From Hormiphora californensis (lineage: Eukaryota; Animalia; Ctenophora), in NCBI GenBank assembly GCA_020137815.1, contig CM035359.1, positions 7,564,001-7,628,000 of the forward strand: a DNA stretch of 64,000 nt. Reading direction: 5' to 3'. Of this stretch, positions 3,213 to 42,723 are shown piece by piece. Position numbers and translations under genes: made by a program. Positions within the stretch are counted from its first letter, which is position 1, and each line of letters starts with the position of its first letter. Below the pieces are notes generated by a model, which saw only the letters and a list, made by a program, of their open reading frames with translations, was not told where the DNA came from and ran no database searches.

Positions 3213-6200
3213 TTACAGGATCTGGATTCGGTTGTTCCAGCTGTCGACCACAACAAGACGTCCCTCGTTGTTCAACTCAACACAGCAGGGTCCATCGAAC
3301 TGGCCGAACTTCTTGCCTCGCTTACCGAACTTCTCCAGGAAACTGAAATAGGGAAAGAGTTGATAATTTAGTTATAAAGCTTTACAGAATCTAAACTTTC
3401 TTCTGTAAAATCGCAGGAGCCAATCTTTTTTGAGAGCTCTTCTTACCTTCCGTGGTTGTTGAATAGAGAGATCCTGCAGTTTCCATACTCCGAAACCATG
3501 ATCTGTCCATTGGCATCAACAGTGATATCAGAGGGTCCCAGGATCTGTCCCTTGCCCTTACCCTCCAGAACCTCTCCTCGGGACTCTCGGGGTGCGCTGA
3601 ATCGATCAAGATATCCACCGTCAAATCCGTAAATCTGGAATGTAGCAATTTGTTAGTTCAAACTTCAGTTAGCGATCGTTCGGGTTTTGCTAGAACTGTT
3701 GTCGCCTTGAACACAATTGAAGCTTGTTCATTTTGCCGGTGTGTTACCTTGATATCAGCGGGGCTGAACTGGGACACGTAGATGAGACCGAATGAATCGC
3801 AGGTGACTCCGACGGGCTGTTTCAGCTGGTACTCTTTGGGGTTATCTTCTCCTCCAACAACCCTCAGGAAATTACCCTGATGAGGAGAGAGGTTTAGTTT
3901 CAGAAAACTTGAGAAGTTGTCCTTGTTAAATGGGGCAGGTAGAATAATAGGTTCTGACCCATGGAGTCTGGCAAAGTTGGTTTGGTTTCGCGAAAAATGA
4001 ATAACTTATCGTACCCTGGGGTCGAAGATCTGGACTCGGTTGTTATCGGAATCAGAGACGATGAGGTAGTTGTCCTTGGTGATGCAGATCTTTCTTGGGT
4101 TCCTGAACTCTCCCTCAGCCTTGCCCTCCCGTCCGATGGTCCTGACAAACTTGCCCTGAGTGGTGAACACACTCAACCTGTTGTTTCCACTGTCCACCAC
4201 GTAGACGAATCCTGGGGGAAGAGAGAGAGGGTTAGGAAGGTCATTATAAGACAAAATTAAAAGCGAGGGAGAAAGGGGTTTATATTCATGATGTCATCAT
4301 TGCATCAGTAAAGGTAAGGGAGTGAGAGAGATCTAGAAAAATAATTACCCTGGCTATCAACGGCAGTATCAGTGGGGTTTGATAGTTCTCCCTTTCCACT
4401 ACCCTCTCGTCCAGCACCAATAATGTGAGAGAACTGTCCGCTCTTCTTCAGCACCTGCACTCGGTTGTTCTCTGAAAGGAAAGGATGGAATGAATAAAAA
4501 GCTTTCACATGATAGAATTAGATGACTGAATGCGGTAAGTTCAATCAAACATAGGACCATGTCTCCAACAGAAAAAAAGTACCTGTATCAGCGACGAACA
4601 TGTTGCCCTGCTTGTCGAATGAAATTCCCATTGGTTTCTTAAACTCTCCAACACCGTTACCGGGCTTGCAGTTGGGGGCACCAATAGCCCTCACTCCTAC
4701 AATAGGGAACACAATTATTAGAGGAACTTGTTTTATTTTAAACTTTGCTTGTGGAATTGAGTTTGAAAATGATATTTTCTGGTTCCCATACCTTGTCCGA
4801 CGTAGTAATCGGTTACATTTCCGTTCTGCTCATCTCCATCAACAGCAGACCTCAAAGTGGAGAACTCTCCGGGGCTGAGGGGCCTGCTGGCGGTCTGTCC
4901 TCGGCCACCTCCGTTCTGATCCTGTGCAGTCCTCTCCCTCATCTCCTTGATGGGCTGGGCGTTGTAGGTCTCCACAACGAACTTGCCCAGTCCATCAATG
5001 AAGGTGGTGATGATGGTCTCGTTGACCTTCTGGAACTCAATATTCTTCCTCTTAACACCAATGTCGAGGTCCACGTTCTTCAGCTCCTCCATTCGCTCGT
5101 AGATCTGTAGGTAAACGTGGCTGTCAATCGAAGTTTCCCTGAGTTGTTGGTTTTAGATCTGATAAAGATACTCCTATAATAACTAAGCCTTCACAGAACA
5201 GCGAAATATGGAAAGTTATACCAAGCCAAGTTCATGTGTTGCCACGTTAGATATGAGTCTCATTATCAATAAGTTGATGTAATAAATAGGGACAAATTGA
5301 GACTCGTTGATTTTATTTCAGGAATAACTCGACGTTTCGCCGTTCGACGGCATCATCAGGATAATCTCAAATTAATTTGTTTAAAGTAGTGTTGAAAAGT
5401 TTCAAACTTTTCAACACTACTTTAAACAAATTAATTTGAGATTATCCTGATGATGCCGTCGAACGGCGAAACGTCGAGTTATTCCTGAAATAAAATCAAC
5501 GAGTCTCAATTTGTCCCTATTTATTACATCAACTTATTATACCAAGCCTTTGTCTCAAGTACCTGGCTCTCTAACCCCTCAAAGGATAGCTAGTATTTTA
5601 CCTGGCTCTGTAACCCCTCAAAGGATAGCTAGTATTTTGCCTGGCTCTGTAACCCCTCAAAGGATAGCTAGTATTTTACCTGGCTCTGTAACCCCTCAAA
5701 GGATAGCTAGTATTTTACCTGGCTCTCTAACTCCTCTAAGGATAGCTATTATTTTACCTGGCTCTCCATGGTGAGGATATCAACATCAGATCCGTCAGTG
5801 AGAAGGTTGGAGACAAAGTCACATCCACTCTGGGTGCTCTGCATGGCTACAGTCAGCTCCTCCCTCTTAGCCTCCAACTGGGACACACTGGAGAGAGAAT
5901 AGAGATCAGATGATGTGATGGAACACAAACTCCTATGATTACCAAGTATTGTCATCAAATTGTGTAATAGTTCAAGATAAATTACCTGGCGGCCTTCATC
6001 TGCTCCACGGTGTTCAGAAGATGCTGTTCTCGGGCCTTGATGGAAGCCATAACTCGCTCAATCATAGTCCTGATATCGTTCTGGGCCTTCTTGGCTTGCT
6101 CCTACAAGAAATGTTTTGTTCCGGGAAGACTATTATTGAGAGATGGCCATTAGGATTGCAGTAGGCTCGATCTAGACCCTTGATTTTGTAAGAAGACATA

Positions 6201-11294: not shown

Positions 11295-14200
11295 ATGGTA
11301 AGCAATGGATTGCCCTTAGTGGGGACTGGAGGGGACTGGGCCTCTTCGTGATTGAGTTTGTTTATTGTTGGATACACGGGATTTAGACTTGCCGGGTCTA
11401 AAATTGACTGCAGCACCCTGTGTTCACTGTTCACCTCGTCACTACCCCCTACACAAATAAATGTATAGTCTAGTTACTAGCCCCCCCCCCCCCCCCCCCC
11501 GTGGTCTAGTAAATACTCTTGCTGCAGCTAATAACCACTAACCACTAACGACTCTTCTACCACCTACAGGGCAAGGAAAAGAATGTGATCTGTACAACAG
11601 AACAACTCGAGGAGTTCCTACAGCAGCGAAATGACATCATCCTAGATGAGCTGAAGAGCATTCTGCAACAGAACAGCAAGAACACTGATGGCAAGATATC
11701 AACTCTAAAGGGAGAAGTTGAAAATGCACTGAAGGTAGAAATTGAAGGGAATATATTTTATAGATCAAAACAAATGGCGGTGTTTGATAGGTATCTTAGA
11801 AGAAGAACCATTAAAAGACACGTCTTTAGCGTAGCTAAGGTTTCTTTACTACGGTTATAAGACGTCTATAGTACGTCTGAGTACGTCTTTAGGACGTCTT
11901 TAGCACGTCTGTCGCTAATACGTCTGTCGCTAGTACGTCTATAACACGTATATGCTACGTCTAAAATAGACGTGTACAACGGTGCAAGCCGTATCTCCCC
12001 TTTTCCAGCCCCCCGGCCCCCCTCGCACAAGTGTTACATTTTTCTTCCTACAAAATTCCTTCAATAAATTCTAAATTCCCCCAGCTACGAGAGAAAGAGC
12101 TGCGAAGGTTGAGACGTGAGACAGAGGAGAGTTTCAGGACTTGTGAGAGGCTCCTACACGCCCTCACATTCCAGAGGAAGATGTTGGAAGCCGTGCTGAA
12201 GATTCGTGATAGGGAGATACAGGTTGGTAAACTTTGGTCCACGGGGCAAAGTGGCACACGATAGGGGCAAATCAGTCCTTAGAATAACGTGTGTCACGTG
12301 ACTTTTTTCTCCAGCAGAAACCTGCTCGTCCTGTTCCGATTTTTTCCCCGCCTGGGTGAATGCCGAAGGCATTCACCCAGATTCCTTTTGCAAAAAGGCA
12401 TAGGGGTTTAGAATTCGACAATTTTACATGACATACTAGTGAAGTGTCACGCTTTTCCTGTAACGTAACCTCCTGAGTTGCTGTTGGCAACTATCCAGTG
12501 CGGAATGCTGTCACTTACTGACTGAACACAACAGGAAGTTTGCGCGCATGTGCGCGGCGCCTTTATGTTGCACTTGCAATTACAATTGTTCATAGATTTG
12601 ACATCGCGCCCTACGTCATTGTGCAATGAGCCAATGAACATTGTTCTGCATTTGTGATCGGAACTGCGACTTATTATTACTAGGATATCACATAGCTCAG
12701 GCAACCCATCAGCTATACCGGCTCACGTATCAGTGCCTAATTAGAAGCAGGTGTGGCAACTGGCACATGCCAGATCACATGGTTGGCGGGGAAATCAGGC
12801 GGTATGGCATTATACCGCAATTATTCTTGTTTGCTGTAATTTCTGTTTGAGTTGGCCAATTTTAATTTTGCAAAAACTTCCAATTAGTTTTTTTATCCTC
12901 CTAAAACTTGGTATAAAAATTTTTCAAAAAAGTCACTATTAAGTTAATTAGTCAAACTGGGGCAAATATGGTTCACTCTCTGGGGCAAAGTAGTTCACCC
13001 TGGGGCAAAGTGGTCCATCACTATTCACTAGGACCAATGAAATCGAGCCTGCAATACCACGTGATACCACAACCCACGTGACATTGGAATGTACTGGGGC
13101 AAAGTGGTCCTGCAAAACAGAAATTGCTGAAGATAACATGGGCCACTTTGCCCCTAATTTAAATCCTCGCTTTATTTCAGAATCTGCGAAGGTGTGTAGG
13201 GATCCAGAAGCGACTGATTGTAAAGACTCTCAATGTAGTGGTAGCAGATGGAGTCCTTGAGATGACTCCCAAACAGAGGGGAGAACTGTTGAAACTAGTT
13301 CAGGAAATGGGGGATATTGATATCAACTCTAGTGAGGTAAGAGATGGGGGACATTGATATCAACTCTAGTGAGGTAAGAGATGGGGGACATTGATATCAA
13401 CTCTAGTGAGGTAAGAGATGGGGGACATTGATATCAACTCTAGTGAGGTAAGAGATGGGGGACATTGATATCAACTCTAGTGAGGTAAGAGATGGGGGAC
13501 ATTGATATCAACTCTAGTGAGGTAAGAGATAGGGGACATTGATATCAACTCTAGTGAGGTAAGAGATGGGGGACATTGATATCAACTCTAGTGAGGTAAG
13601 AGATGGGGGACATTGATATCAACTCTAGTGAGGTAAGAGATGGGGGACATTGATATCACCTCTAGTGAGGTAAGAGATGGGGGACATTGATATCAACTCT
13701 AGTGAGGTAAGAGATGGGGGACATTGATATCACCTCTAGTGAGGTAAGAGATGGGGGACATTGATATCAACTCTAGTGAGGTAAGAGATGGGGGACATTG
13801 ATATCAACTCTAGTGAGGTAAGAGATGGGGGACATTAATATCAACTCTAGTGAGGTAAGAGATGGGGGACATTGATACCAACTCTAGTGAGGTAAGAGAT
13901 GGGGGACATTGATATCAACTCTAGTGAGGTAAGAGATGGGGGACCTTGATATCAACTCTAGTGAGGTAAGAGATGGGGGACATTGATATCAACTCTAGTG
14001 AGGTAAGAGATGGGGGACATTGATATCAACTCTAGTGAGGTAAGAGATTGGGGACATTGATATCAACTCTAGTGAGGTAAGAGATAGGGGACATTGATAT
14101 CAACTCTAGTGAGGTAAGAGATGGGGGACATTGATATCAACTCTAGTGAGGTAAGAGATGGGGGTCATTGATATCAACTCTAGTGAGGTAAGAGATGGGG

Positions 14201-17050
14201 GACATTGATATCAACTCTAGTGAGGTAAGAGATAGGGGACCTTGATATCAACTCTAGTGAGGTAAGAGATGGGGGACATTGATATCAACTCTAGTGAGGT
14301 AAGAGATGGGGGACATTGATATCAACTCTAGTGAGGTAAGAGATGGGGGACATTGATATCAACTCTAGTGAGGTAAGAGATGGGGGACATTAATATCAAC
14401 TCTAGTGAGGTAAGAGATGGGGGACATTGATACCAACTCTAGTGAGGTAAGAGATAGGGGACATTGATATCAACTCTAGTGAGGTAAGAGATGGGGGACA
14501 TTGATATCAACTCTAGTGAGGTAAGAGATAGGGGACATTGATATCAACTCTAGTAAGGTAAGAGATGGGGGACATTGATATCAACTCTAGTGAGGTAAGA
14601 GATGGGGGACATTGATATCAACTCTAGTGAGGTAAGAGATGGGGGACATTAATATCAACTCTAGTGAGGTAAGAGATGGGGGACATTGATACCAACTCTA
14701 GTGAGGTAAGAGATAGGGGACATTGATATCAACTCTAGTGAGGTAAGAGATGGGGGACATTGATATCAACTCTAGTGAGGTAAGAGATAGGGGACATTGA
14801 TATCAACTCTAGTGAGGTAAGAGATGGGGGACATTGATATCAACTCTAGTGAGGTAAGAGATAGGGGACATTGATATCAACTCTAGTGAGGTAAGAGATG
14901 GGGGACATTGATATCAACTCTAGTGAGGTAAGAGATGGGGGTCATTGATATCAACTCTAGTGAGGTAAGAGATGGGGGACATTGATATCAACTCTAGTGA
15001 GGTAAGAGATAGGGGACCTTGATATCAACTCTAGTGAGGTAAGAGATGGGGGACATTGATATCAACTCTAGTGAGGTAAGAGATGGGGGACATTGATATC
15101 AACTCTAGTGAGGTAAGAGATGGGGGACATTGATATCAACTCTAGTGAGGTAAGAGATGGGGGACATTAATATCAACTCTAGTGAGGTAAGAGATGGGGG
15201 ACATTGATATCAACTCTAGTGAGGTAAGAGATGGGGGACATTGATATCAACTCTAGTGAGGTAAGAGATGGGGGACATTGATACCAACTCTAGTGAGGTA
15301 AGAGATGGGGGACATTGATATCAACTCTAGTGAGGTAAGAGATGGGGGACATTGATATCAACTCTAGTGAGGTAAGAGATGGGGGACATTGATATCAACT
15401 CTAGTGAGGTAAGAGATGGGGGACATTGATATCAACTCTAGTGAGGTAAGAGATGGGGGACATTGATACCAACTCTAGTGAGGTAAGAGATGGGGGACAT
15501 TGATATCAATTCTAGTGAGGTAACAAAAGAGAAACATCTCTACCATATACATATTCTCTCAGGGGGTAGGTTTCTCGGAGGAGACTGTACTAAATGAATA
15601 CAGGGAGGCTCTCGTTAATTCGGATAACAACGCCAATACCAACACTATTGATAATGTGATCACTGTCCGACGTGCAGAGAAGGCTGCCAGAGCGTGAGTG
15701 TAGAACACAGCACACTAGATGTAGTATATATACTTTATCACACCCCATTCAAGGGGAGATATAGGGGTGATTTTATCCGATAATAAACTTGCCTTTAGGG
15801 TTGGTAAACTCAAAATTTTAAGGCTCGGATGAATTTGTAAGTGGTAGGTTATTTGGTGACATATAGCCACCTGGCGCGACCCCCGTGTGTGAGCTCAATC
15901 TTGGTCGCGCCAGGTGTCTATGTCACCAAGTAGTTTATCACTCTTTTAACCCTGATGATAGCCCACTATAATTGCAGCAAGCCTATTAACTATATATTTC
16001 TCTCCGCGTGTATCAGGGAGGGACAAAGTAGCTCTGCAGCCTTCATTCAGAGTATGTTCACACCCAAGTCCGCAGCTCGAAATGAGGAGACAGAGAGTGA
16101 TGAAGAGTATGTTCCTCTAGGTGAGTAATTAATTAATTAGGCGATTAATTAATTAGGTGATTAATAGGGTAACTAGTTAACGGGTGAATTGGTTTAGCAG
16201 TTAGCTTCTTTAAAATGTTCTGGAGTTAACTAACAATCTCCCTGCCTTTAGACATCAAAGCTAAATCAGCAACTGCACCTGTGACTGCTAGTGCTGCAAA
16301 ACCGAACCCTGTAAAAGCAAGGGATGTGCCTAACGTAAGTCTCATGCACTGTCAGGCCAATAAAAAAGGGTCAATCTGATAGCTGTCACAATGGACATGT
16401 GCCTAACATATTATCTGTTAACTCGATCAATTCCAAAATTCAATTCCCTTTTCCATCTTCAGATTTTCGGGGGACTCTCAGACGCAAGACGAAATGAGAA
16501 GTGTTCTAAAGCTGTATTGTTTGAGACTGGTAAGATGCTTGGATCTGCGTGGGTTAGTTTTGCTATCACCCAAAGGATTGGATTCTCTCTGGATGACACA
16601 TCTGTATTGAGGTAATATTCCAAGGCAATTTGCGATCGTGCAGTTTTATTTAGTCCTGAACTGAATTGTCCTGTTGATTAAAGTTTCGTTTTTACTTGTT
16701 AACATTAACAATATTTTACTTAACATCTAATTAACATCTAATTACCTAATGTGTGTTACAGGAAGCGGTACAACTCGGATGAAGAACGTGCCAAGGCAAT
16801 GTTACTGATATGGTGCGAACAGAGCGGGGAGGGAACATATGGTAAGTCCTTCTTGTTTTTCATACCCAACTTTATAACCATGTTGTGAGTTGTCGAGCAA
16901 AGGGTGGAGAGCACCCTTACTCAATTATATGTCCATGTAGAAAAATCGATTTAAAATTTCTTCTTTTCCTCTATAGCTAATTTGGTACTGGCTCTAAACG
17001 ACATTGGGAGGAAAGACATTGCCCAGAAGGTTATCCAGCAAGTTCAATAA
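11295..17050 (+). CDS. Coiled-coil protein with C-terminal death domain, multi-exon
   Basis: ATG|gt at 11295, then exons starting at 11570, 12085, 13182, 15563, 16016, 16252, 16463, 16762 and 16977 splice in frame. C-terminus LGSAWVSFAITQRIGFSLDDTSVLRKRYNSDEERAKAMLLIWCEQSGEGTYANLVLALNDIGRKDIAQKV fits the death-domain pattern. TAA at 17048-17050. Confidence 0.85.
12243..13154. mobile_element. MITE-like element in an intron
   Basis: TIR GGGGCAAAGTGGC / GCCACTTTGCCCC with internal GGGGCAAA repeats. TSD not resolved. Confidence 0.6.
13307..15523 (+). repeat. 37-bp minisatellite x60 made of exon end plus splice donor
   Basis: Unit ATGGGGGACATTGATATCAACTCTAGTGAG|GTAAGAG. First donor at 13337, last at 15520 (2183 = 59 x 37). 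Confidence 0.97.
15853..15929. repeat. Short hairpin / MITE remnant
   Basis: TTGGTGACATATAGCCACCTGGCGCGACC ... GGTCGCGCCAGGTGTCTATGTCACCAA inverted arms. Confidence 0.6.
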
Positions 17051-19617: not shown

Positions 19618-21601
19618 TCCTGAATTAGTAATTAATTACTAATTATAATTGGTAAATATATATACCTCACTCTCGTTAATTAAGCTCGCATATAATTTCA
19701 AGAAACTTTTAAATAAGAAACTTTTTTTCTAGGAAACTACAGGTGTAAGCAATCCAAAAACAAAAAGAATTTCTCCTTTATCAAGAAACTAAACAAGTTA
19801 GGGGTGTTCTATTTTGTTGTGGTGTCTCTGAATTGTGTGATTTACATTTGAAAAGTTTCTTATAAAAAAGTTTCTTACTAAAGCGTTTCTTAAAAAACGA
19901 GAGTAAGGTATATGCAAAGCAAGCTCATAAAAATGTGATTTAATAGCTAATGAGAACAAGAAAGCGAGAGATCTAAGCTCGCTAAAATCCTTTCTATTTT
20001 CTTTAAAGCTGTCCATGGGGGGGGGGGGGGTCTCATGTTGGTTTTGTTGTTTTTGTTGTTTTTGTTGGTACACGAAATATGTACTAACAAACCACATATA
20101 GGTATACTACCAACAAACACCAACAAAACCAACAAAACCAACAAAAGTTAGTTTTGTTAGTTTTGTTTGTCAGTTTTGTTGGTTTTGTTAGTACTAACAA
20201 AATTAACAAAATTAACAAAACTAACAAAACATTTTGTTGGTTTTGTTTGTTAGTTTTGTTGGTTTTGTTAGTACTAACAAAACTAACAAAACATTTTGTT
20301 AGTTTTGTTTGTTAGTTTTGTTGAGATTTGTTAAAGTTTTGTTGACTCAACAAAACAACAAATCTCAACAAACTAATAAACCTCAACAAAACAACAAATC
20401 TCAACAAACTAACAAATATCAACAAAATAAAAAATCTCAACAAAACAACAAATCTCAACAAACTAACAAATCTCAACTCAACCAAAAAATCTCAACAAAA
20501 CAACAAATCTTAACAAAACAACAAATCTCATCAAAACAACCAATCTCAAGAAAACAAAAAAATCTCAACAAAACCACAAATCTCAACAAACTAACAAATC
20601 TCAACTCAAACAACAAATCTCAACAAAACAACAAATCTCAACAAAACAACGTACATATCTCAACAAACTAACAAATCTCAACAAAACAACAAATCTCAAC
20701 AAAACAAAAAATCACAACAAAACAACAAATCTTGACAAGTTGAGATTTGTTGGTTGTGTTGAGATTTGTTAGTTTGTTGAGATTTGTTGTTTTGTTGAGA
20801 TTTGTTGGTTGTGTCGAAATTTGTTAGTTTGTTGAGATTTGTTGTTTTGTTGAGATTTGTTAGTTTGTTGAGTTTTGTTGTTTTGTTGAGATTTGTTGGT
20901 TGTGTTGAGATTTGTTGTTTTGTTGAGATTTGTTGGTTGTGTCGAAATTTGTTAGTTTGTTGTGATTTGTTAGTCCGTTGAGATTTGTTGTTTTGTTGGC
21001 ATTTGTTAGTTTGTTGAGATTTGTTGTTTTGTTGAGATTTGTTGTTTTGTTGAGATTTGTTGGTTGTGTTGTGATTTGTTAGTCCTTTGTTACAAACAAA
21101 ACAACTAAGCCAACAAAATTCACCAACAAAATTCACCAATAAAGCCAATAAAACCAACAAAATTAACAAACAAAACCAACAAACAAAACCAACAAAATTA
21201 ACAAACAAAACCAACAAGCCAACAAAACCAACAAAACCAACAAACAAAACCAACAACAACAACAACAACAACAAAATGGATTTATATACCGACTAAATAG
21301 ACAAGTACTCTCGATTGGATCGAAGAGCAGTTGCCATTCATAGCGGTTCTCTCATCCTATCTTGACATATTGGTTGACAAAAGGTCTTAAATGGTAACTC
21401 ATACTGGTGACTTATAACTGACATATATAGTAGACTTTATTAACTCTCAACACTAGGTGACTGTGGGTGACAAGTATAATCAGAAAAAATAATAACAAAA
21501 ATGATAAACTGAAAAGTATCTTAGATTATAAAGAAATATGTGACAGCAGCAGGGGTGACCGTGTGAGAAACGGGGACTAATGAATAACCGAAAAGAAATT
21601 A

Positions 21602-24600
21602 TTAAAGACTGACGTCGAAAACCAAATAAGGTCTTTCAGAGAAGGTAACAGTAGCATCGAACAGGTAGGTCTTCAGGCGAATACGGAAGGAGTCCTCTGA
21701 AGGTGCGTCTCTAAGGTTCTCCGGTAGGTTGTTCCAGACATGGGGGAGATATTGGGATATTCTCCTTTTTCCCAGTTTGCTCACTTTCACATTTCCAGAA
21801 GGTAGCTTTAACTTGTAATGGTCTACTTTACAGCTCTGACGAGTAGACTTTTGCACTGCAGTATTTTCATCATGTTCCACTAGATCCTGAAGGTACTGAG
21901 GGGCACTTCCATAATAGATCTTGTACCCTAGTAAACAGATTTTGAAGAAAATCCTCTTCTCAATCGTAAGGATATGGGAATCACGGTAGAAGGGGTCCAG
22001 ATCAACTTTCCTCTCTCTGACTCCATGGATGTATCTTATTACTTGATTCATTAGTCCTTTCAGCGGCTTGATGGTAGAGGCCGGCAGGTTGAAATACAGG
22101 GCATTGCAATAGTCCACTTTGGATATGACCAGCTGGGAGGCAAGCATCAGACGTAGAGGTTTATCAATGAATCGGCGGATCTGCCAGAGGTTCCTCATAG
22201 TAACTCCAGCATTCCTCTTGACCATGGAGATTTGACGTTTCATATCCATTTGTTCATCAAGATAGATACCAAGGGTCTTTCCCGATTTTCCAGCCATGTC
22301 CATGAGGGAAATGATGTTCCCATTTAGCTCAAGAGTCAGGCCACTCTCCTCACGTACAGTATCCATCTTCTTCTTCTTTCCCAGGATAAGAAACTCAGTT
22401 TTATCCTCATTAACCATCAGTCTGTTCTCAATCATCCACGTTCTTACCTCCTCCAAACATTTCTCAATAATCTCCTTTGAACCTGTCCAGCCTTCCACAG
22501 GGCAGAATCCGATGTATATTGTGCTATCGTCTGCATAAAGTCGTATTGTGAGTCCATACTTCTTTACAATAGGTTCTAGTGGTTCCACATACAGGGCAAA
22601 GAGGACAGGACCAAGGAGAGAGCCTTGGGGTACTCCATATTTGAGAAAGAGCCTAGGTGAGAGGGCATCTCCAATTTTAACTTTATAGCTCCTGTCATTG
22701 AGATAACTTGTGAACCATTCGAGTACCGTTGATCTAATTCCAAACCGCTTCTCCAGCCTCTTCAAAAGCTGAGGGTGGTCGATGGTATCAAATGCAGCAG
22801 AAAGATCAATTTGAACGACTGCCACAACATTTCCTCTGTCCATTTCCCCAAGGACATCATCAACAACTCGCACCATGTGTGTCTCACAGCTGTGGTTGGG
22901 GCGAAAACCAGATTGGCAGTCACCTCGCAGGTCGTTTTTCTCCAAATGCTCATTTAGCTGTACATTGACAGCTTTCTCCGCTAGCTTGGACAGAACACTG
23001 AGATTCGAGACTGGTCTGTAGTTCGCAAGAGAGTCAACATCTCCAGATGTATTCTTGATCGTGGGCCTCACAATAGCCTCTTTCAGTCCTGACGGGAATA
23101 CACCACTCTGCAAAGAAGTGTTTACGATCTTGGTAAGCACTGGTAGTAGTGTAGGGAGAAGCTGCTTCAGCAGAGAGGTCGGGATTGGGTCCAAGTCACA
23201 GAACTTATCCGGCAGGCTCTTTACAAGGCTTGCCACTTCATCTTCAGTCATAAGACTGAACGTCTCAAATCTTTCTGTCTCTCCTTCAATAGCACCGAAC
23301 TCAGTTGATTTCTTTTCACCCAACTCTTCAATCTTGACACCAATCTTCTTCTGTAGTTTATCAATCTTGGACTTGAAAAACTCTCCAAACTCAGTTGCTA
23401 GTTTCTCCGGGTTGACCATATCTGGGAGGATAACATTGGAGTTACCCAGTAGCTTGCTCAGTTGTTGGTTGAGCCTCTTTTGATCGCGTCCACAGAGTTC
23501 GATATTTCTTCTGGTGTATTCTGATCGTTTTCTGACCTCCATCTTATTGAAAGCTGACCTTAGTTCCACATACATGGCCCTTAGCTGCGGCTTCTCTTTA
23601 GTCTTGTCCTTTCTCCACTTTCTCTCAGCACGCCGCTTCTTCCTCCGGAGGGTTAGCAGCTCTTCATCCATCCATGGTGTATACTTCTCTTTCTTCCTTC
23701 TCTTCTTCATTGGACAGTGCTTATCAACCAGGACTAGCAACGTTCCATATAACTTCTCAACAAGGCTATTAACATCCTCTTCCTCAGCAAGTGAGGTAAA
23801 CAGTCCACTGGCTTTGAGATCCTCATTAAAACTCTCCACATCCACCTTCGAAAAGTCCCGATACCAAATTGTTTCCGGCCGTTTCCTCTTACTAATCCTC
23901 GTAGTCAGTTGTAGGTCCACTGTAATAAGATGGTGGTCTGAAGTAGTTCCCTCCTCTAAGACCCTCACTGGTTCCAGACAATCTGCTACAGTAGCATCCA
24001 TCAGGGCTAGGTCCAGAGTACCTCCATGTCTGTGGGTTGATACCAATGGAACAATCTGTTTGAAGTCAAACTCCTCGATCATCTCCTGTAGTTTTTTTGG
24101 ATAAAATTCATCAGGCCTTTCCATGTGAAAGTTGAAGTCTCCCATGATTAATGGTGTCCCGACTTTACAGTTTAGTTCCTCAAGATATCCCTTGAATTCA
24201 TCCAGGAAGTGGCTCTGGGTATGAGGTGCCTTCTTCGAGTACGGTGGCCTATAGATGTTTACTAGCCGGTACATCTCACTAGCATTTCCAACAGTGGTCT
24301 CTGTACACTCAAAGGTCTTGAAACACTTGGTAGATCCAGATTTAACACCCAGGTCCGCTCTGTATACCACTGCTACTCCACCACCAATCCTCTGCTTCCT
24401 CGGTGCCGAGTGTATTTCCCATCCTCTTTCCTTTATCTCATGATGTTTAGCATTGTCACCTTTCCTCAGGTAGGTCTCTTGAAGAAGACAAATATCAACA
24501 AGCTGGTCCTCAAGGTGTTCCAGTACACCAGCAGTCTTATTGACAAGGGAGTTGCAGTTCAATGTTCCAACTCTTAGTGAGTTCTCCTTCTTTCCAAGAA

Positions 24601-24631
24601 GTCTCGTGCCTTCCGACTGTACTCGTTTTTT
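21602..24631 (-). CDS. LINE ORF2: APE endonuclease plus reverse transcriptase (no AUG start)
   Basis: LRVGTLNCNSL, LQET, GGGVA, MGDFNFH and SDHH (APE); YRPVSNL, QSGFR, DLSAAFDTIDH, GVPQGSLLGP and YADD (RT); C-terminal DYCNALY...IFFKI resembles L2. The frame stays open upstream of the annotated TTG into the ORF1 overlap. Confidence 0.95.
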   Translation of the reverse strand, partial: KKRVQSEGTRLLGKKENSLRVGTLNCNSLVNKTAGVLEHLEDQLVDICLLQETYLRKGDNAKHHEIKERGWEIHSAPRKQRIGGGVAVVYRADLGVKSGSTKCFKTFECTETTVGNASEMYRLVNIYRPPYSKKAPHTQSHFLDEFKGYLEELNCKVGTPLIMGDFNFHMERPDEFYPKKLQEMIEEFDFKQIVPLVSTHRHGGTLDLALMDATVADCLEPVRVLEEGTTSDHHLITVDLQLTTRISKRKRPETIWYRDFSKVDVESFNEDLKASGLFTSLAEEEDVNSLVEKLYGTLLVLVDKHCPMKKRRKKEKYTPWMDEELLTLRRKKRRAERKWRKDKTKEKPQLRAMYVELRSAFNKMEVRKRSEYTRRNIELCGRDQKRLNQQLSKLLGNSNVILPDMVNPEKLATEFGEFFKSKIDKLQKKIGVKIEELGEKKSTEFGAIEGETERFETFSLMTEDEVASLVKSLPDKFCDLDPIPTSLLKQLLPTLLPVLTKIVNTSLQSGVFPSGLKEAIVRPTIKNTSGDVDSLANYRPVSNLSVLSKLAEKAVNVQLNEHLEKNDLRGDCQSGFRPNHSCETHMVRVVDDVLGEMDRGNVVAVVQIDLSAAFDTIDHPQLLKRLEKRFGIRSTVLEWFTSYLNDRSYKVKIGDALSPRLFLKYGVPQGSLLGPVLFALYVEPLEPIVKKYGLTIRLYADDSTIYIGFCPVEGWTGSKEIIEKCLEEVRTWMIENRLMVNEDKTEFLILGKKKKMDTVREESGLTLELNGNIISLMDMAGKSGKTLGIYLDEQMDMKRQISMVKRNAGVTMRNLWQIRRFIDKPLRLMLASQLVISKVDYCNALYFNLPASTIKPLKGLMNQVIRYIHGVRERKVDLDPFYRDSHILTIEKRIFFKICLLGYKIYYGSAPQYLQDLVEHDENTAVQKSTRQSCKVDHYKLKLPSGNVKVSKLGKRRISQYLPHVWNNLPENLRDAPSEDSFRIRLKTYLFDATVTFSERPYLVFDVSL

Positions 24632-25791
24632 AACATCTCAGCTCCGGCTGTTCTGCTCATCAATCTCTCCTTCTCCATGATAAAGAAGGGACATTGGAAA
24701 CTGTTCGCTGTGTGGGTGGTGGCATTGAGCTGATCGATCTTGCTTCGGCTACTCTTGCAGTTTGCACAGCATCTGGAGTCAACTTTTCTATCTTTCTTCA
24801 CTTGACAATCCTTGTACCGATGATTTCCAGCACAGTAGGTACAAACTGGATCACCGCTGTCTCTCCTGGGGCACATCACTGAGTCTGACTTGTGACCATA
24901 GCGTTGACACTTGAAACATTGAACGATGTGGAATCGATCCTTCACAATGTGGATTTGAAAATCAAGGTTAATTCTGTCATTCCTTTTGCGAACAATCTCC
25001 CGTATCTTTTTTGACATCTGGACAACTGCATATCGATCCTCCTTATGAAGAAAGATGACTTTCAGTTCCTCTTGGTGACTTTCAACCTGCTCTTTGATTT
25101 CCTCATTCTTCCTCAGTATTTCACTGTACACTTCCTCAGCAGTTGTAATTTCTCCAGCAATGTCTGAGATTGTAACTTTGGGATTAAGCTTCTTGGTGGT
25201 CAGAGTGGCTGTTGACGTATCAAATTCAGATTTCAGCAGTTCTTCAGCTTTGTCTCGCTGAGACTTGTCCTTGAAAACTAGATTGGTGTCCTCTTCATTC
25301 GAGCTGGTTCCATCAACTGGGATTGACTGCAGAGTCTTTCGTACCTTCGCCTTTACAACTTTCCACTTTTCCAGTCCAACTTTCTCAAGTTTGAGGGTGT
25401 GCTTCTGTGGTGTCTTCTTAGGGCTGGGGTTGAGCAACTTTCCAGCATCATCAGTCTTCTCCTTGCCGTTTATCGCCTTCTGTATCATGTCTGGTATGTT
25501 TGCAAAACACTCCCGCATCGCCTCAAGCTCCTTGAGAACCTGTTCAGACCTATCCTGTCCCACTACTGTTCCTTCTTCTGACTTGGTCTTCACACGGTCA
25601 TCCTGCTGTTTGTCCACCATTCTCAATAGGTTAATAGCGAAATTCCATAGAATATCTTTAGTGATACCCGCTGGGGGAGCTTTTTTACCTTGCAAGATTG
25701 GGTCCATATCCACAGGTAGATTATCTTTCATAAACGTGTCCAACTCTTTCCTCGTCCATAACTTTAGCGGGATTGCCTTCAATGTCATCAC
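24574..25791 (-). CDS. LINE ORF1, gag-like with zinc knuckles
   Basis: CFKCQRYGHKSDSVMC, CTYCAGNHRYKDC and CANC...H...C motifs near the C-terminus; lies upstream of ORF2. Confidence 0.9.
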   Translation of the reverse strand: MMTLKAIPLKLWTRKELDTFMKDNLPVDMDPILQGKKAPPAGITKDILWNFAINLLRMVDKQQDDRVKTKSEEGTVVGQDRSEQVLKELEAMRECFANIPDMIQKAINGKEKTDDAGKLLNPSPKKTPQKHTLKLEKVGLEKWKVVKAKVRKTLQSIPVDGTSSNEEDTNLVFKDKSQRDKAEELLKSEFDTSTATLTTKKLNPKVTISDIAGEITTAEEVYSEILRKNEEIKEQVESHQEELKVIFLHKEDRYAVVQMSKKIREIVRKRNDRINLDFQIHIVKDRFHIVQCFKCQRYGHKSDSVMCPRRDSGDPVCTYCAGNHRYKDCQVKKDRKVDSRCCANCKSSRSKIDQLNATTHTANSFQCPFFIMEKERLMSRTAGAEMLKNEYSRKARDFLERRRTH

Positions 25792-26001
25792 TAGCTACGA
25801 TCTGCAGGATAAATTCAAGGCCTCGCCTAACGACAACTAGTGTCAATCCTCCGGGTAAGATCCGGTCTTCTCTTGTCTTTGGCCTTGTCTTTCTCACACA
25901 GAAACTGTTACCAGTCTCTGATAAACCCAGAAAAGACAAAACAAAAAAGTATAAAGAGCCGAATAAATACCAAAGAACTTAGCGAATTGGGAAAACGAAA
26001 C

Positions 26002-26043
26002 CTCAAATTAATTTGTTTAAAGTAGTGTTGAAAAGTTTGAAAC
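26002..26043 (-). other. Spliced-leader exon copy at the LINE 5' terminus
   Basis: Reverse complement is GTTTCAAACTTTTCAACACTACTTTAAACAAATTAATTTGAG, 42/42 identical to 5399-5440. Confidence 0.85.
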
Positions 26044-26150
26044 CAACAAACAAACAAAACCAACAAACAAAATTTTTGTTATGTTTGTTTTGTTTGTTGG
26101 TGCCAAAAAAACGTCCATACTACCAACAACCAACATGAGACCCCCCCCCC

Positions 26151-29385: not shown

Positions 29386-32300
29386 ATGTCGTCAGTTAAT
29401 ACAAGTGCTGTCGTGGATATCTCAGAGACCAATGTTCATGGTATGTGGTCTGCTGTTGAGGATCAATATAATATATCGATTGCAAAAGATATATCATGAA
29501 ACTCATATCAAGCTAAATGTGGCCCATTATTTCATACAGGTATTTTGCACAGTGGTAATGGGGAAGAGAACCCTATTGAGGGATTCAGACAGGATAGGGT
29601 CACTGATATCATGTTCTGGGTTCTTGTAATTTTCTCTCTGGGACTCTTCTACCTGCTATACAAGTTCTTAAAAGGTACAAAACAGACGTCCAATGTACAG
29701 TAAATCTCACCAGTTCATTCAAATGTTTTTATTCAAATGTTTTTGTGTTTATAGATTGTAGGGTGCTACTTATCACCTACATACAACTTTAGCTCCTATC
29801 AATACCTCCCCCAGTTTTTACAGTTCCTACCCTCCCCCTCCCTACAGTGTATAGACCCTACACAGCGGCCCAGATGCTCTACAAACGAACAAGCCTTGAA
29901 AAAGCAGAGTTCATCACAGTACAAGATGTCACCTCTGGTTACCACTACTTCTGTCGTGTACACACTATCAAGATCCGACACGAGGGATCATTTGAGGGGA
30001 CAGAGAGAGTCCCTGATATTACAAACGTTGCTAACAGCAGCAATACCGCAGAAGAGGTGAGAGGAAATGCTTTTTAATTTCTCACTGAGATGTTTTTAGG
30101 AGAACAACTAGGATGTTTAGATAGCACCGGCAGAGTATCGCGATATATATCTTTTCACGTGTTCATATCAACCATTCTTGAAGAGTGTGAACATCTTTGT
30201 GTGTCTGCCACATGATTATGCACAACTAATTGTTAATATCAAGGGTTCGTTTGATCACCGATTCATTACTGATATATACCCCACACCTACAACTCTATAT
30301 TCTATCCCCCACCCCTCTCAGGTTAGTTTGAACCTGTTCCTGGTGAACAACAGGGTATGTGAGACTGACAGTATAAAGTATGTTGAGTTTCACTGTGTTA
30401 GGTTTGTCTACAGCAAGCCCTTCAATGCATTCTACCCACTGACTGGGCTGGATGGAGACAATCCCATGAGACGACCCAGAATTACAAAGAGTGGGCTGAA
30501 ATCGGATGATGTTAGGATCCTACAAAAGGTATGGAACACTGAAACATCGAACATGAGCCTGTCACTGATCATTGCCCTAGACATGTGGCATGGATGTTCC
30601 TTTGATACCAGAAATATATCCTACCCTAATTACATTATCCCTCCCATGATCGCATAACTGACCTAGGTTTACGGACCGAATGTACTGGATATAAAAGCTG
30701 AGTCGTATCTGGAAATATTTACCAACAACATTCTTGATCCTTATTATGTCTTCCAGATATTTACACTTATTCTCTGGTGGGTATAGTCCCTTCAAAACTG
30801 TATGTTGTTTGTTTGTGAGTGCTGCGTAGCTGGGGGCGACCTACCCAAACTTTAACCAAACTGCGTAATAAAACTTTTATGACAAAATCACTACGATCAT
30901 ATTACATGAAATTAGATCATGTGGAACATGCATGATATTGATCGAGAATTATACACTTCTTGTACATATGTGCTATACGCTCCTTTGCTAAGTAAAGGGG
31001 GGTGACACAACACACACTCTGTGCAGGTGCTATGCGGGATACTACTACTACTGTGTTGGTGTGATACTAGTAGCCAGTATCATCATCTCAATAGCCCTCT
31101 TCATCCTGAGGAGGGAGGAGGTAAGACAACAGAAAGATCTGGTTATGGACAACTCAGTGACAGTTACAAGGGACGGGTTCCAGTATTACATTGGGTTTAG
31201 TGAACTAGTGCCTGGTGAGTAGTTCACTATGATCTGGATCACAAACATCTCTACAGTAAACATATTTCAGATTTCTTGAATGTCATGTAGTAACACCTCC
31301 AATCTCCATTCCAATAACAGGTGATATAGTTGTCATGTACTAACACCTCCATTCCAATACCAGGTGATATAGTTGTGCTGAACAAGAGTTCCCGGTACCT
31401 AACATACGATGGTACAGTGATACAGGGAGGACTATACATTGACAATGCTAATCTAAATGGAAGTACTAAGACGTATTACAGAGAGACAGATCCTACTAAT
31501 AACGGCAGTCATTATCACAAACTAACATTACATGGACAGAAGGATAGTGTCTTCGCTGGAACACGGGTAGGTGTTATCCAACACTGTGTTTTATAAAGGT
31601 CTTGATTCGAGGTGCAGAAGGGTATAGGGTAGCCTAATTAAACTCTTACCTCGCACCGTGTTATATTGGGTTTTCAAATCCTCAATTCCCCTACCCCCTA
31701 ATAAATCCCCAATGGCGTCGAAACATCTGACCGGGTATTATGGGTTTTTAAATCCTCAATTATCCCAGGTGACGGTTCTACAACCAGATGAATCAGGGGA
31801 GGACGTGCTAGTTCTCGTTGTCAACACAGGCTTCCTAACTAGAAAGGGTCAGGTACTCAAGGACGCCAGAACACCTGACAACTACCAATACTTCGTAGAC
31901 AGAGACTCACTCCTCTATCTAAAGTTCCTCCTGGTGCTGGCTGTAGTTGCATTTGGGTTGGGAATAGCAGTGTTAGTCTGGATTCCTGACTGAGGCTTTA
32001 GATGTCTGGGAGGCTGTTATAGCATCACTTCGACTCTCAACTACTTGCCATACCCCCATCTCTACCCCTCGCCCTGACAACTGCCTTTGTCTGGTCAGTC
32101 AAGAGGCTGAGCAGGGAGCACGTTGGTTCACTAAAGTTCCGCCGCATCCCTGTGGGAGGGAAGGTCACCTCAGTGGTGTTTGACAAGACTGGGACACTAA
32201 CAACCTAACAAGATGGAGTATCACAGGACGGATAGAACCCTACTCAGACGAAGCAGGGTCCCTTGAAATATCCGGTATTGACACATCACGTGACCTAGCC

Positions 32301-34172
32301 CCAGGATGATGTTCTCTACCTCATGGCGACGTGTCACTCAGTCACAGCAGGCAGTCACTCAGAAACCCAGATATAGGGAATTGGAATGCTTGATATGGCC
32401 ATGTTCGGGGTGAGTCAGTTTGATTTAGTGGAGACTGGGAGGAGAGTGAAGGTGTTTCTCTGGGAAAACAGACACACTTGGGGAGATGAAGATAGAGTTG
32501 ATCAGGAGGTTCCCCTTTACATCTGATCTCCAGTTCCAAGGTGTTATCGTGTATGTAGCTGCAGAGGACAGACATGTGTACTATGCCATGGGTAAACCTC
32601 AAATTGTCCTGGGATTCTGTGAACCTACCACTATCCCTGCTCTGACATCAGATAGGATCACCTACTACACACGTCATGGTTACACCGTGGTTGCCTATGG
32701 CAGCCAGGGACCTGCAACTCAAGGAGACTACTGATGAGGTAAAGTACGTTACAGTACCAAGATGAAGTTTATTGGTCTGCTCGTGTTTGGGAGATACTCT
32801 GGCTGACTGGAGCTAAAGAGGTCGTCAGTTCACTTCAGCTGGCCAAGTGCTCACTGAAGATGTGCACGGGGGACTCCCTGGACACAGCAGTGTACATAGC
32901 ACGCCAAGTGGGGCATTCCTCCCTGAGACGGCTAACTCCCATTCTAACCGAGACAGGGTTATACAGATGAAGGCGAGTATTGATGAGGATGACCAACTAG
33001 AGGTTGAAGCAGTTGATTATGATACTGGTGAGCCTTATAAACTAGCCTCAGCATGGGGAGAGTATTGGGACCCACCCAACTTTGTATTGGACGGGAAATC
33101 GTTTGACATCCTGGACGATTACGGTGGTTCTCACCTAGATCGTATCCTAAAGGCGGGAAAAGTGTTCGCAGAAATGAAGCCGCGATACAAGAAGGCGTAC
33201 GTGGAACTGCTAAGAAAGATTGGTAGTCTGACATGTATGGTGGGAGATGGTTTCAATGATAACGATGCCCTCAAAGCAGCCGATGTGGGTTTATCTCTTC
33301 TTAACAGTGAATCTGGTCTAGCAGCACCATTCTACAGTAAACGGAAGGATATCCGCTCAGTGACGGTGATACTGAACGAGGGAAGGACCATCATGACGCA
33401 GATCCTGACGATCTTCATGTTTACTGCGTGTTACTCAGTCCTGGGAATGGTGGGGGAACTCATGTTGTACTGGTTCTTTTACGAGATGAGTGAGGCAGAG
33501 TGGATCTACATTGATCTCTTCCTTGTGATGAGCATTGACCTAATGTTGGGTTACTCAGAGAGCCGTGAAACCATAGCAACCCGACGCCCGACAAAGTCGT
33601 TTTTCAACAGAATCCGTCTGTTTTCCATGTTAGCATTCCTCATTGTGTGTGTGACGGTACAGTTCCTTGTGTTGTTCTACCTCCAAGACCAGGAGTGGTA
33701 TGTGGCAGTTGAGACCAGTGTGGAGGAGCTCACAGCGGGGTCCATGGAGGCAACCTACATCTTCCTTCTCCTCATATTCCAGGTAAATATAGGATATGTG
33801 TTTCGTGATGGATGTGTAATAACATTGATTTAGTTGATCCGAGCACTCTTCTCCTGAGTGGTCTTTAAGTTATAGATACTTGACTAACTTCCCTCATTTC
33901 AGCTTACCTACCCAGCTATTGTCTACACTTTGGATCACGAGCCGATATACAGGAACACCCTCATGATGTGTTTGATGGTGGTCCTCTACGCCATCAATGC
34001 CTACCTTGTTCTCTTCTCTGCACAGATAATTAACAAACTATTCGAATTCAACATGTCCCCCTCATTCCTCTTTAGAGTGCAGATCTTAGCGATCGCAGCA
34101 GGAAACTTGGTGGTTAACATTTTTGTGCAGATTATTTTCATTTTCGTTGATCGAAAAGAAAGTAAGCGTTAG
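29386..34172 (+). CDS. P5B-type ATPase (ATP13A-like), divergent; frame-disrupted as assembled (assembly error or pseudogene)
   Basis: ELVPGDIV, TGFLTRKGQ, IPPSLP, FDKTGTLT, MATCHS, MCTGD, FAEMKP..K, MVGDGFNDNDALKAADVGLSL, AAPF, NEGR and C-terminal TM helices. Several frameshifts, mainly at 31980-32920. Confidence 0.88.
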
Positions 34173-35840: not shown

Positions 35841-37800
35841 TTACGGTGGCAGATTCCGGCCAAGTGTTTTTTCAATCAAGTGAAATGTTTTGTATGAAGC
35901 TTTATAAAATTTTTATTTCAAAATAAAAATAAACATGTCGTTAAAATTATTGGCCGAGATCTGCCATGCCACTTGCATCTCGGCAAGGATTCTAAAAAAC
36001 CTTGGCCAGAATCTGCAACCTGCGTGGCAGTTGTCGGCAAATATACTGAAACTTATTTATATCAAAGCGAAAACCGCTGTACCTGACTAATTTTGATACG
36101 CTGAGTCACGTAAGCAATCCCTCAAAGGTCGGGAAAGTGTCCTAATTAAGCATAATTGGGTCTAATTGACTCACTGAAAGTTCTTATCGGCACGGCACAG
36201 TACATTCCAACGTTACTTCCTGCTAGTGTTGGTACCATTGTTTCGAGAGTAATACTGCTACTATGTGAGACTGATCTCACTGTGCATGTCAGTTGTCACC
36301 AACTGCTAGTTTTCCATGAGGCTAGTCGTTGTCGGCAGGATTTTATACATTTATATTATTTATTAATATCATTCGGTCCAACCAACACTTTTTGTACTCG
36401 AAGGCTCGGGAAGTCACTAGGCTAGGCTTTTGCAACTTGATCAGTTGATCTGTATTTTCTCTGTCAGCTGTTGCATTTCCTTTGGCCCTCATTCAAGATA
36501 TTTTAACAGGATGCCAAACACTTAGTGTGAACTCATCAAGAACAGGAGTTGCAATGATAGCGGGAAGATATAGAAAATACATCCTCTCTGTCCTTGCTTC
36601 TCTTATTCTCCTACGTTATCTCTCCGCTCCTCTTGGCCCTCAAGACCATATTCAGACATTATCAGCCCAAGAATTGTCAGTCAGGAATTCAACAGCATCT
36701 GATAGAGCTGTAAAAGAGAGGAAGTCGTATTTTGCAGTTGTTTTGGTCCTTGATCACAAGTGAGTTTAGCCTATATATATATAATATCATCAAATTGATT
36801 TCATGTTTCATTTACTAATGACCATTAGTCAATACATGCTATATTTCGCGACTTGTTCAATACCATGTAAATACATGGTTTCATTCCCTAACAATTTCCC
36901 TCACGGCAGGAGAGAAGCCAGGGAAAACGCCCGAAATTACTGGAATAATGAGACGCTTTGGAACTCAGTCCTCAGCCCTGAACACCGCATCAAGTTTATT
37001 TACGTCATAGGCAGTGATACAGATGTTTCTCTGTTGGAAAAGACTGAAGGTGAATCTGTTTACCAGGCAGATTTCCCTGAATCTCGTCAAAACTTGAAAT
37101 TCAAACTCTTCTCAGCATTCAAATGGGTCAACGAGACTTATGATTTTCAGTACATCATCAAAACTGATCTTGATGTGGTGATGAACTACACTTTATGGAT
37201 AAATGCGATAGTTTCCCGGCCTGATCAACCAGTACTCTACACGGGATATATTTGCCATGGACATGCAGATGCTGAGTACCCCTGGTGCTCTGGGATGGGA
37301 TATGTCCTCCATCACTCTGTTATCCCCACTATTTTATCATTCCCAGAGAGTGACTATGATATTCCAGAAGATAGGACGGTGGGGAAAATATTATCAAAAG
37401 CGGGTCTAGAGTTTTCGGGGCTGTTTTTCGGGGGGTCCAGGAAGTTGAAAGATCTAAATTGGCCCATTTCATACAGGCATATGATCGTGTATCACTGCGT
37501 GAATGCTGAAGCAGGGTTTAGAGTTGTGTTGGCACAGGTTCCAGCTCTCCATTTTAATGGGAACACTAACCATATGAAGGCGTGCTGGGAACACTTTTTC
37601 TTGAATATTTCCCGCTTTGAAGATGAACGATTAGTACATCAACTGACCTGATCCACCCTTGTTTACATACTTGTTACATTCAGCGTATCAAAATTAGATA
37701 TAAATAAGTTTCAGCTTGTGGGAAATAAAAATTTTATAAAACTTCAACAAAAACATTTCATTTGATTGAAAAAGCACTTGGCCGGAATCTGCCACCGTAA
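35841..37800. mobile_element. TIR element enclosing the GT31 gene (Pack-type)
   Basis: Inverted repeats TTACGGTGGCAGATTCCGGCCAAGTG..TTTATAAAATTTTTATTT (35841-35918) vs 37723-37800, plus a second inverted block ~36047-36104 vs ~37680-37714. Flanked by AAGA (or TA). Confidence 0.75.
36554..37651 (+). CDS. GT31-family beta-1,3-galactosyltransferase-like protein, two exons
   Basis: N-terminal TM anchor (YILSVLASLILL); intron 36760-36909 is in frame; REARENAR..W, FIYVIG, ESRQNLKFK, YIIKTDLDV (DxD), YPWCSGMGYVL and PEDRTVG motifs. Confidence 0.88.
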
Positions 37801-38128
37801 AAGATATTTCAGATATGCTAAATCAAGGGACAATGGTGGGCAGACTGGGCCTGGGATGGGCGCCGTTACGATCTGGGTGTTTGGTGGCCTGTTTACAGGT
37901 CAAATCAAATCAAATCAAATCAAATTTACACAATCTAAACGCTTGCGGATTTCCCAGCGAGTGGGTCCTCCTTGTCAAGTCTTAACTCAAAATAATAAAA
38001 TCGAATCGCCCCGTCATGTGGTCAGTCATCAGCACAGGGGCGGCTCTGCCATGCGGACGATGCGGACGCGTCCGCATTTTTACTTTGGATCACGGAGAGA
38101 AAAAGAAAAAATTCAAGGAAAAGGGTCA

Positions 38129-38280
38129 ATGAGGCCCCTCGGAAATGTTCAAGTCATGCACAATCAAGTCACGCCCACCAATCACAGCTCAGAACGCGCG
38201 GAGTGCTTCGCGCGTTCTGCGCTGTGATTGGTGGGCGTGACTTGATTGTGCATGACTTGAACATTTCCGAGGGGCCTCAT
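38129..38280. mobile_element. Hairpin MITE (partial copy at ~45903-45986)
   Basis: ATGAGGCCCCTCGGAAATGTTCAAG... / ...CTTGAACATTTCCGAGGGGCCTCAT, a near-perfect palindrome. Confidence 0.75.
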
Positions 38281-39603: not shown

Positions 39604-39679
<76 letters not shown>

Positions 39680-39905
39680 TGTTGAAGAGAAAGGGGAGAG
39701 GATGTATGTGTACAATCTAAAATGTGTGTACCTACACCCATGACACACACCATCTCTCCCATCCTTTACCAGATCCTACATTTCCCTCCTTACCTACCAC
39801 CCATGTCCTCCCATCCCACCACTCTCTCGTGTTTCCTCGGTAGAAGTAGGGGGTAGATAGTGTGGTGAGAGAAAGAAAAAAGGGAGAGTAGAGAGTAGAA
39901 AGAGT

Positions 39906-39945
<40 letters not shown>

Positions 39946-39946
39946 G

Positions 39947-40030
<84 letters not shown>

Positions 40031-40086
40031 TTGAAGAGAAAGGGGAGAGGATGTATGTGTACAATCTAAAATGTGTGTACCTACAC

Positions 40087-40907: not shown

Positions 40908-41055
40908 ACCTACACCCATGACACACACCATCTCTCCCATCCTTTACCAGATCCTACATTTCCCTCCTTACCTACCCCATGTCTCCCATCCCACCACTCT
41001 CTCGTGTTTCTCGGTAGAAGTAGGGGGTAGATAGTGTGTGAGAGAAAGAAGAAAG

Positions 41056-41133
<78 letters not shown>

Positions 41134-41333
41134 TGTTGAAGAGAAAGGGGAGAGGATGTATGTGTACAATCTAAAATGTGTGTACCTACACCCATGACAC
41201 ACACCATCTCTCCCATCCTTTACCAGATCCTACATTTCCCTCCTTACCTACCCCATGTCTCCCATCCCACCACTCTCTCGTGTTTCTCGGTAGAAGTAGG
41301 GGGTAGATAGTGTGTGAGAGAAAGAAAAAAGAA

Positions 41334-41383
<50 letters not shown>

Positions 41384-41447
41384 TGTTGAAGAGAAAGGGG
41401 AGAGGATGTACCTATGTGAACAATCTAAAATGTGTGTACCTACAGTG

Positions 41448-42390: not shown

Positions 42391-42461
<71 letters not shown>

Positions 42462-42655: not shown

Positions 42656-42723
<68 letters not shown>

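Follow-up and report, generated by a model that had tools for sequence, protein, structure and literature searches.

The window, the whole 64,000-nt stretch of Hormiphora californensis DNA that was analysed, contains a LINE on the minus strand and a short fold-back insert. The same 42 nt stand at the head of the LINE and of one arm of the insert (Table 1). The LINE is an APE-type two-ORF element with ORF1, an ORF2 encoding APE endonuclease and reverse transcriptase (RT), and a simple-repeat tail. Both reading frames are unbroken and the element starts exactly with the 42 nt, as an earlier note on this DNA had described it. ORF2 matches the Pfam families PF03372, PF14529 and PF00078 (APE endonuclease, E 3.7e-11; RT, E 4.2e-31), while no Pfam match is found for ORF1. 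The first Met of ORF2 is aa 122, within the endonuclease domain. ORF2 carries a DLSAAFDT motif, which we take to be L2-like, and a C-terminal motif, and on these the element presumably resembles the L2/CR1 group. In common with LINEs of that group it has two ORFs, APE and RT, the presumed L2-like motifs and a simple-repeat tail; it differs from them in its host-derived 5' leader and in the conserved overlap of its frames at -1, which contains a slippery heptamer. No target-site duplication is clear; an 11-nt candidate lies in flanks of low complexity, and it occurs twice downstream.

The host gene at 2730-7997 (-), named by eye as RING/coiled-coil/NHL, carries the fold-back insert in one of its introns. 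Two other host genes are observed on the plus strand, a P-type-ATPase-like gene at 29563-34166 (HAD hydrolase match) and a galactosyltransferase gene at 36785-37651. A tandem array of about 30 copies of a 74-bp unit, 97% alike, occupies 13304-15523, and a cluster of direct and inverted repeats at 39606-43134 includes an 818-bp inverted pair.

Table 1. Features of the LINE and of the fold-back insert in the window (SL, spliced leader; TSD, target-site duplication).
Feature	Position	Strand	Evidence or remark
TSD of insert, left copy, 12 bp	5216..5227	+	
Head-to-head fold-back insert, Penelope-type by structure, 309 bp, no ORF	5228..5536	.	
40-nt 3' extension ('tail'), one arm only	5228..5267	-	
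Minimal hammerhead core (predicted), second copy, long arm	5331..5359	-	
SL heading the long arm, one mismatch at axis base 5403	5366..5407	-	palindromic centre in common with short arm
SL +1 to +43 at the head of the short arm	5398..5440	+	first 11 nt a quasi-palindrome, symmetry centre of insert
Minimal hammerhead core (predicted), short arm, 6 nt behind SL junction	5447..5475	+	
TSD of insert, right copy, 12 bp	5537..5548	+	
LINE 3' UTR and trinucleotide simple-repeat tail	21251..21601	-	tail merges into like low-complexity target
LINE ORF2, APE endonuclease and RT, 1011 aa stop to stop	21602..24637	-	Pfam
LINE ORF1, 404 aa from first ATG, gag-like, Cys/His knuckles	24574..25788	-	
Slippery heptamer A AAA AAC, in-frame, within 64-nt ORF1/ORF2 overlap	24625..24631	-	predicted -1 frameshift site
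LINE 5' UTR, 213 nt, U-rich right behind SL	25789..26001	-	97% identity to L085
Acceptor-like pyrimidine tract and CAG, UTR nt 82-84	25918-25920	-	candidate site
SL +2 to +43, LINE 5' end	26002..26043	-	match to published leader, window self-comparison

The 42 nt as the ctenophore spliced leader

The 42 nt at 26002-26043 (-) and 5399-5440 (+) agree in every letter and the sequence behind each differs. The chance of such an exact repeat is negligible (BLASTN E 3e-14). The earlier note had reported these two copies correctly and had missed a third, imperfect one on the long arm of the insert. At every position the 42-mer matches the last 42 nt of the Hormiphora leader printed in PMC8527503, which is 44 nt long. 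Thus, the sequence is the ctenophore spliced leader (SL), as the note had stated. Judged by this leader, the window comes from a ctenophore of pleurobrachiid type. In SL RNA genes and at cDNA ends the leader begins one base upstream of the 42-mer, with A. The SL contains AG at just two places, +1/+2 and its 3' terminus, and the AG at +1/+2 is usually missing from the element copies. The 42 nt contain a single AG, which is their last two letters.

We scanned metagenome contigs with an exact 24 nt of the SL and obtained 121 loci out of an estimated total of about 130. Because the scan required the exact 24-mer, it is blind to families whose leader has decayed. At 111 of the 121 loci the sequence is host-mRNA-like, and nearly all of these have the leader at one end of the contig and an ORF behind it. 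A Pfam scan of 86 of the 127 extracted ORFs (loci L001-L081) matched families of ordinary cell proteins at 65 of the 74 host-like loci scanned. The leader is therefore present at host mRNA 5' ends; its absence there was one of two findings that would have spoken against the earlier reading of this LINE as a copy of trans-spliced RNA. Two further loci, L087 and L088, are tandem SL RNA genes on one contig, with a 778-bp unit and an upstream region of their own. Their SL exon begins with A and is directly followed by a GTAAG donor, and loose ends in run X2 show the same SL-gene intron start and upstream sequence. CACGTG-containing upstream elements are observed in both (L087:1-624, L088:1-624), together with a T-rich, putative Sm-like stretch about 55 nt downstream. 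The fold of the SL RNA is uninformative (z -0.61). The SL pattern has no match in the viral-contig collection and none in the genome-contig collection.

SL-headed element copies

Five of the 121 loci belong to the family of the window LINE (L085) or to four relatives (L028, L039, L042 and L064). L085 is 97% identical to the window LINE and has the identical SL/UTR junction in another flank. The four relatives are all SL-headed, with 37-48% identity to the window LINE in ORF2 and 31-38% in ORF1; between families the ORF1 identity is 31-59%. Over the first 120 nt of the UTR the relatives are 48-52% identical to the window LINE, compared with 44-48% for shuffles, while the UTRs of L028 and L042 are 76% alike. 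In an ORF1 tree of 16 rows the SL-headed rows lie on either side of a deep split; the other 11 rows are ORF1 homologs whose 5' ends are not in the data, so the tree gives the trait no date.

SL-headed loci are also found outside these families. L071 has a flank of 53 nt, and its ORF resembles, by eye, ORF1 of another LINE group, with no LINE Pfam match. L081 is unclassified and has 282 nt upstream of the SL, in an assembly with otherwise mostly mRNA-like contigs. L015, a homolog of L071, is transcript-like and has the look of LINE ORF1 RNA headed by the SL. In L071 (96-101), L081 and L015 a TTTTAG, TTTCAG or CAG lies at most 6 nt behind the SL as an acceptor-like motif left unused.

Together with the window LINE, L085, L028, L039, L042, L064, L071 and L081 make up eight element copies. 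The leader is exact in all eight; beyond the 24 nt used as query, 135 of 135 nt agree. The copies start at SL +1 or +2 in five of eight cases and at +1 to +4 in seven, and one starts at +9. All eight junctions are exactly at the terminal AG of the exon, without SL intron sequence, and the flanks of all eight differ; ahead of the SL, L042 has just 6 nt and L064 just 5, too short to prove by flank that they are genomic. The constant SL/UTR junction in L085 and flanks unlike that of L087 are what the earlier note expected of a leader fused to element UTRs, as opposed to an SL-gene context. Its statement that more than one class of retroelement is SL-headed also holds, for the LINE families and the Penelope-type insert. 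The further suggestion that the GT behind the SL lets the leader act as a splice donor is rejected: GT follows the SL in just two of seven element families, host mRNAs have it there as well (8 of 111), and no joint skipping from the SL is found among those listed for the three DNA-type runs.

Contigs of four runs were placed on 24900-26046, from the DNA-type runs X2, X5 and X10 and the RNA run X18 (from X14-X20, small shares). In X10, which carries a second organism label, long contigs cover ORF1 and the UTR at depth 395-596, and a 172-nt contig of depth 383 extends from the UTR to 26 letters within the SL, short of the 31 letters required for a bridge. At the SL 5' end there is an accumulation of loose ends whose flanks are unlike one another (44 contigs in X2, 25 in X5 and 27 in X10), and 19-22 contigs per DNA-type run leave the SL 3' end into other sequences. 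No SL-less 5' end of the window LINE is observed among the 24 of 123 loose-end rows listed. In X18 the LINE has a depth of 2-9 with ORF1 thinly covered, and no contig of this run crosses the SL junction. X5 has no cover at 25953-25991, a gap that carries no evidential weight. In one X5 contig, ORF2 (23574, beside a donor-like GTATGT) is connected backwards to nt 83 of the UTR (25919). This joint sits two bases off the strongest UTR acceptor and may be a rearranged copy, a ligation chimera or a back-splice. In X5 and X10 (window 25992-26043) another SL-headed element matches the first 10 UTR nt and then diverges.

The reading frames of the window LINE overlap at 24574-24637 (-). In all five families (window, L028, L039, L042 and L064), ORF2 overlaps ORF1 in the -1 frame, and an in-frame A AAA AA(C/T) heptamer is found 60-63 nt ahead of the first motif of the endonuclease. 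The same heptamer type occurs at 2 of 2006 codons inside the ORF1 bodies. In three of the five families the first Met of ORF2 is inside the endonuclease domain. A search for strong structure downstream of the heptamer found none. Read from the sequence, the heptamer and the -1 overlap predict programmed -1 ribosomal frameshifting in this LINE clade.

Template of the LINE and fate of its leader

The template of the LINE was very probably a trans-spliced RNA, copied by target-primed reverse transcription up to the cap, because the junction is at the exon AG and lacks SL intron, the 5' limit coincides with the cap, the flanks are dispersed and unrelated elements are SL-headed too. NeSL-1, SLACS, CRE and CZAR are non-LTR elements inside SL genes with an RLE endonuclease, and the window LINE is like them in being a non-LTR element next to the SL, at the 3' end of its exon. 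On this reading it would have been inserted site-specifically into an SL RNA gene in the NeSL, SLACS, CRE or CZAR manner, with the leader as target DNA. However, its endonuclease is APE, not RLE, and its flanks are dispersed and unrelated. Furthermore, the true SL genes L087 and L088 have their own upstream region and GTAAG intron, and neither is found beside any of the eight copies or behind the 3' end of the window LINE. Such an insertion is extremely improbable, and we reject it on the unlike flanks of the eight copies. A chimera of the U6/L1 kind, formed during reverse transcription by template switch or by ligation to SL RNA, is very unlikely as well. SL RNA is an abundant small RNA, U6/L1 chimeras are known, and the window junction and the SL RNA intron both start with GT. 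Against this stand the eight junctions, all at the terminal AG and free of SL intron sequence, the sameness of the junction in L085 and X10, and the lack of a GT start in five of seven families.

Given a trans-spliced template, it is an even question whether SL-headed copies themselves sustain the lineage by receiving a fresh leader at the terminal AG of the old one. Transcription would begin ahead of a genomic copy, either as read-through or from a UTR promoter firing into the flank. The host would trans-splice a new SL at the final AG of the old leader in the copy's RNA, and this leader-spliced RNA would then be reverse-transcribed to the cap to give a new SL-headed copy. As a whole we regard these steps as about evenly balanced between right and wrong. 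Since the 42 nt contain a single AG at their end, splicing there would put a new leader precisely in place of the old one, remove the flank and leave no stacked relics. No stacked-leader relic, which the earlier note had proposed to look for, is found in nine UTRs (best 106/1000 shuffles, 9/9 non-significant). That the leader is exact although the UTRs have diverged suggests that it is renewed in every cycle and not passively inherited. Several observations count against re-splicing at this site. The SL terminal site is GAG with 11 of 20 pyrimidines upstream, while the host cis acceptors read by eye in one gene of the window are YAG (CAG or TAG) in 13 of 13 cases. Stronger YAG sites lie further into the LINE UTR; their use would yield shortened copies, and none is found among the matches listed. 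If L081 is RNA, read-through without re-splicing occurs.

Leader renewal has to be weighed against two readings that need no GAG acceptor. The template could be trans-spliced while the SL-headed copies are dead ends, and a few SL-less masters with promoter, outron and YAG acceptor would drive each family, renewed occasionally from unspliced RNA. This accounts for the exact leader equally well, and spliced and unspliced RNA of one retrotransposon has a precedent in Cer1 (PMC3315495). We nevertheless consider it rather unlikely: no upstream departure is seen at 26001-26003 among the loose-end rows listed (24 of 123), the X10 contig is unbroken at the junction, and the sequence behind the SL is unlike that of ordinary acceptors. 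At least two T are found in the first 4 nt behind the SL in 7 of 7 element families and in 16 of 111 host mRNAs, where the five LINE families are kin, so that the element count stands for about three independent cases. The T-rich start suggests some special constraint. A tandem acceptor at host junctions was tried as a candidate and rejected, with AG in nt 1-6 in 43/111 cases and in 34-43/111 further on, which is no enrichment.

In the other reading there was one ancient capture. The leader would be encoded by the element, an internal UTR promoter would start at SL +1, selection would keep the leader exact, and no trans-splicing would take place at present. LINEs as a rule carry internal promoters, and the U-rich start behind the SL that is common to the families could be a core-promoter element. 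L1Tc, for example, makes unspliced transcripts via an internal promoter (PMC1874656). With one capture, neither the weak GAG acceptor nor the YAG sites that compete with it would be a difficulty. However, every base of the 43-nt leader would have to stay exact while the UTRs are at shuffle level and the ORF1s are down to 31-59% identity. Furthermore, unrelated elements (the Penelope-type insert, L071 and L081) are SL-headed too, so the leader was captured at least several times. We judge a single capture unlikely. How the LINE keeps its 5' end is directly testable by comparing the leader of its RNA with the leader of the source locus.

The fold-back insert and comparison with known systems

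The insert contains a palindrome of 271 bp at 5268-5538 with its centre at 5403. The first 11 nt of the SL are palindromic except for the middle base and form the axis of the insert. A few bases at the end of the short arm are common to the TSD. The 12-bp TSD and the inequality of the arms speak against a fold-back made in assembly. 'Penelope' is a structural label here, because the insert has no ORF. In the predicted hammerhead core there is an extra base between positions 9 and 10.1, helix III is palindromic and helix I has about 2 bp. Our own hammerhead descriptor, made after PMC4209133, has two matches in the window, both in the insert, and none in 100 shuffles. Rfam gives no hammerhead and nothing at gathering score in the window, and scans by E-value give only hairpin-driven miRNA matches. 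A comparison of 5228-5536 with the 121 SL loci gives no match.

Penelope elements are described in PMC3846280 with inverted pLTRs, a tail and a TSD, and an antisense template is favoured there. The insert is like them in its head-to-head arms that overlap in a palindrome, one short-tailed arm and a short TSD; it differs from the elements as described in that source in its trans-splice junction to the SL, in a palindrome that is the SL 5' end, in having no ORF and in being one insert. The minimal hammerhead variant is described in PMC4209133, where the intron in the D. virilis pLTR ends at helix I. As in D. virilis Penelope, the core in the window lies just behind a splice junction (PMC4209133).

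The insert is likely a dead by-product. RT would have copied a sense RNA with the leader as far as its first bases. Two cDNAs primed from both target strands would then anneal via the 11-nt terminal quasi-palindrome of the SL, or one cDNA would fold back. A sense template is suggested because a trans-spliced leader exists on sense RNA only, unless the leader has become fixed in the pLTR of this family (one copy was seen). The leader marks the template strand, and the insert thus bears on the sense-versus-antisense question in Penelope replication.

Tentatively, and with somewhat less than even confidence, we combine the two elements: an animal LINE clade would have the host trans-spliceosome remake its 5' end in each cycle at the terminal AG, and a ctenophore Penelope would have been copied from sense leader-spliced RNA, with the SL palindrome making the head-to-head ends. 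If this is true, the element needs no fixed start site, its 5' end never erodes and no relics are left.

SL-tagged genomic copies have been described in other lineages. In dinoflagellates, DinoSL-tagged retrogenes carry a genomic SL that comes from trans-spliced RNA, and their re-expression and re-splicing are possible (PMC12014239; also PMC5585692). They resemble the SL-headed LINEs in having the host SL at the 5' end of a genomic retrocopy, and they are copies of host genes in which internal re-splicing leaves stacked 15-nt relics (PMC12014239). The ctenophore LINEs differ from them in being autonomous and animal, with a leader free of internal AG and no relic found. At the RNA level, about 30% of the TE Iso-Seq reads of Hydra bear the SL (PMC12220107), and C. 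elegans Cer1 has an SL1-spliced mRNA and a full-length genomic RNA that skips the SL1 site (PMC3315495). These elements share with the ctenophore LINEs the use of host trans-splicing by TE RNA; the data on TE transcripts in both sources concern RNA, and an SL as the 5' end of a genomic copy does not appear among them (PMC12220107, PMC3315495). In the full-text literature, a scope that leaves most subscription papers outside, we found no report of autonomous animal LINEs with SL-headed genomic copies. The phenomenon is real; SL-tagged retrocopies and trans-spliced TE RNA are already known elsewhere, and SL-headed autonomous animal LINEs would be its new part. The surprise is limited, since the principle is known from other lineages.

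The Hormiphora genome paper reports the leader on 56% of Iso-Seq reads and counts 718 genomic leader copies, with 491 in Mnemiopsis, whose origin its passages on the leader do not trace (PMC8527503). SL-headed retroelements may account for part of the copies in both species. They may also account for the false shared first exons that genomic leader copies cause in annotation.

Two more palindromic inserts are found in the window, at 44547-45551 (1009 bp, 95.5%) and 38126-38283 (158 bp). Their arms are related and contain neither SL nor hammerhead, and both inserts are likely fold-back or MITE-type elements.
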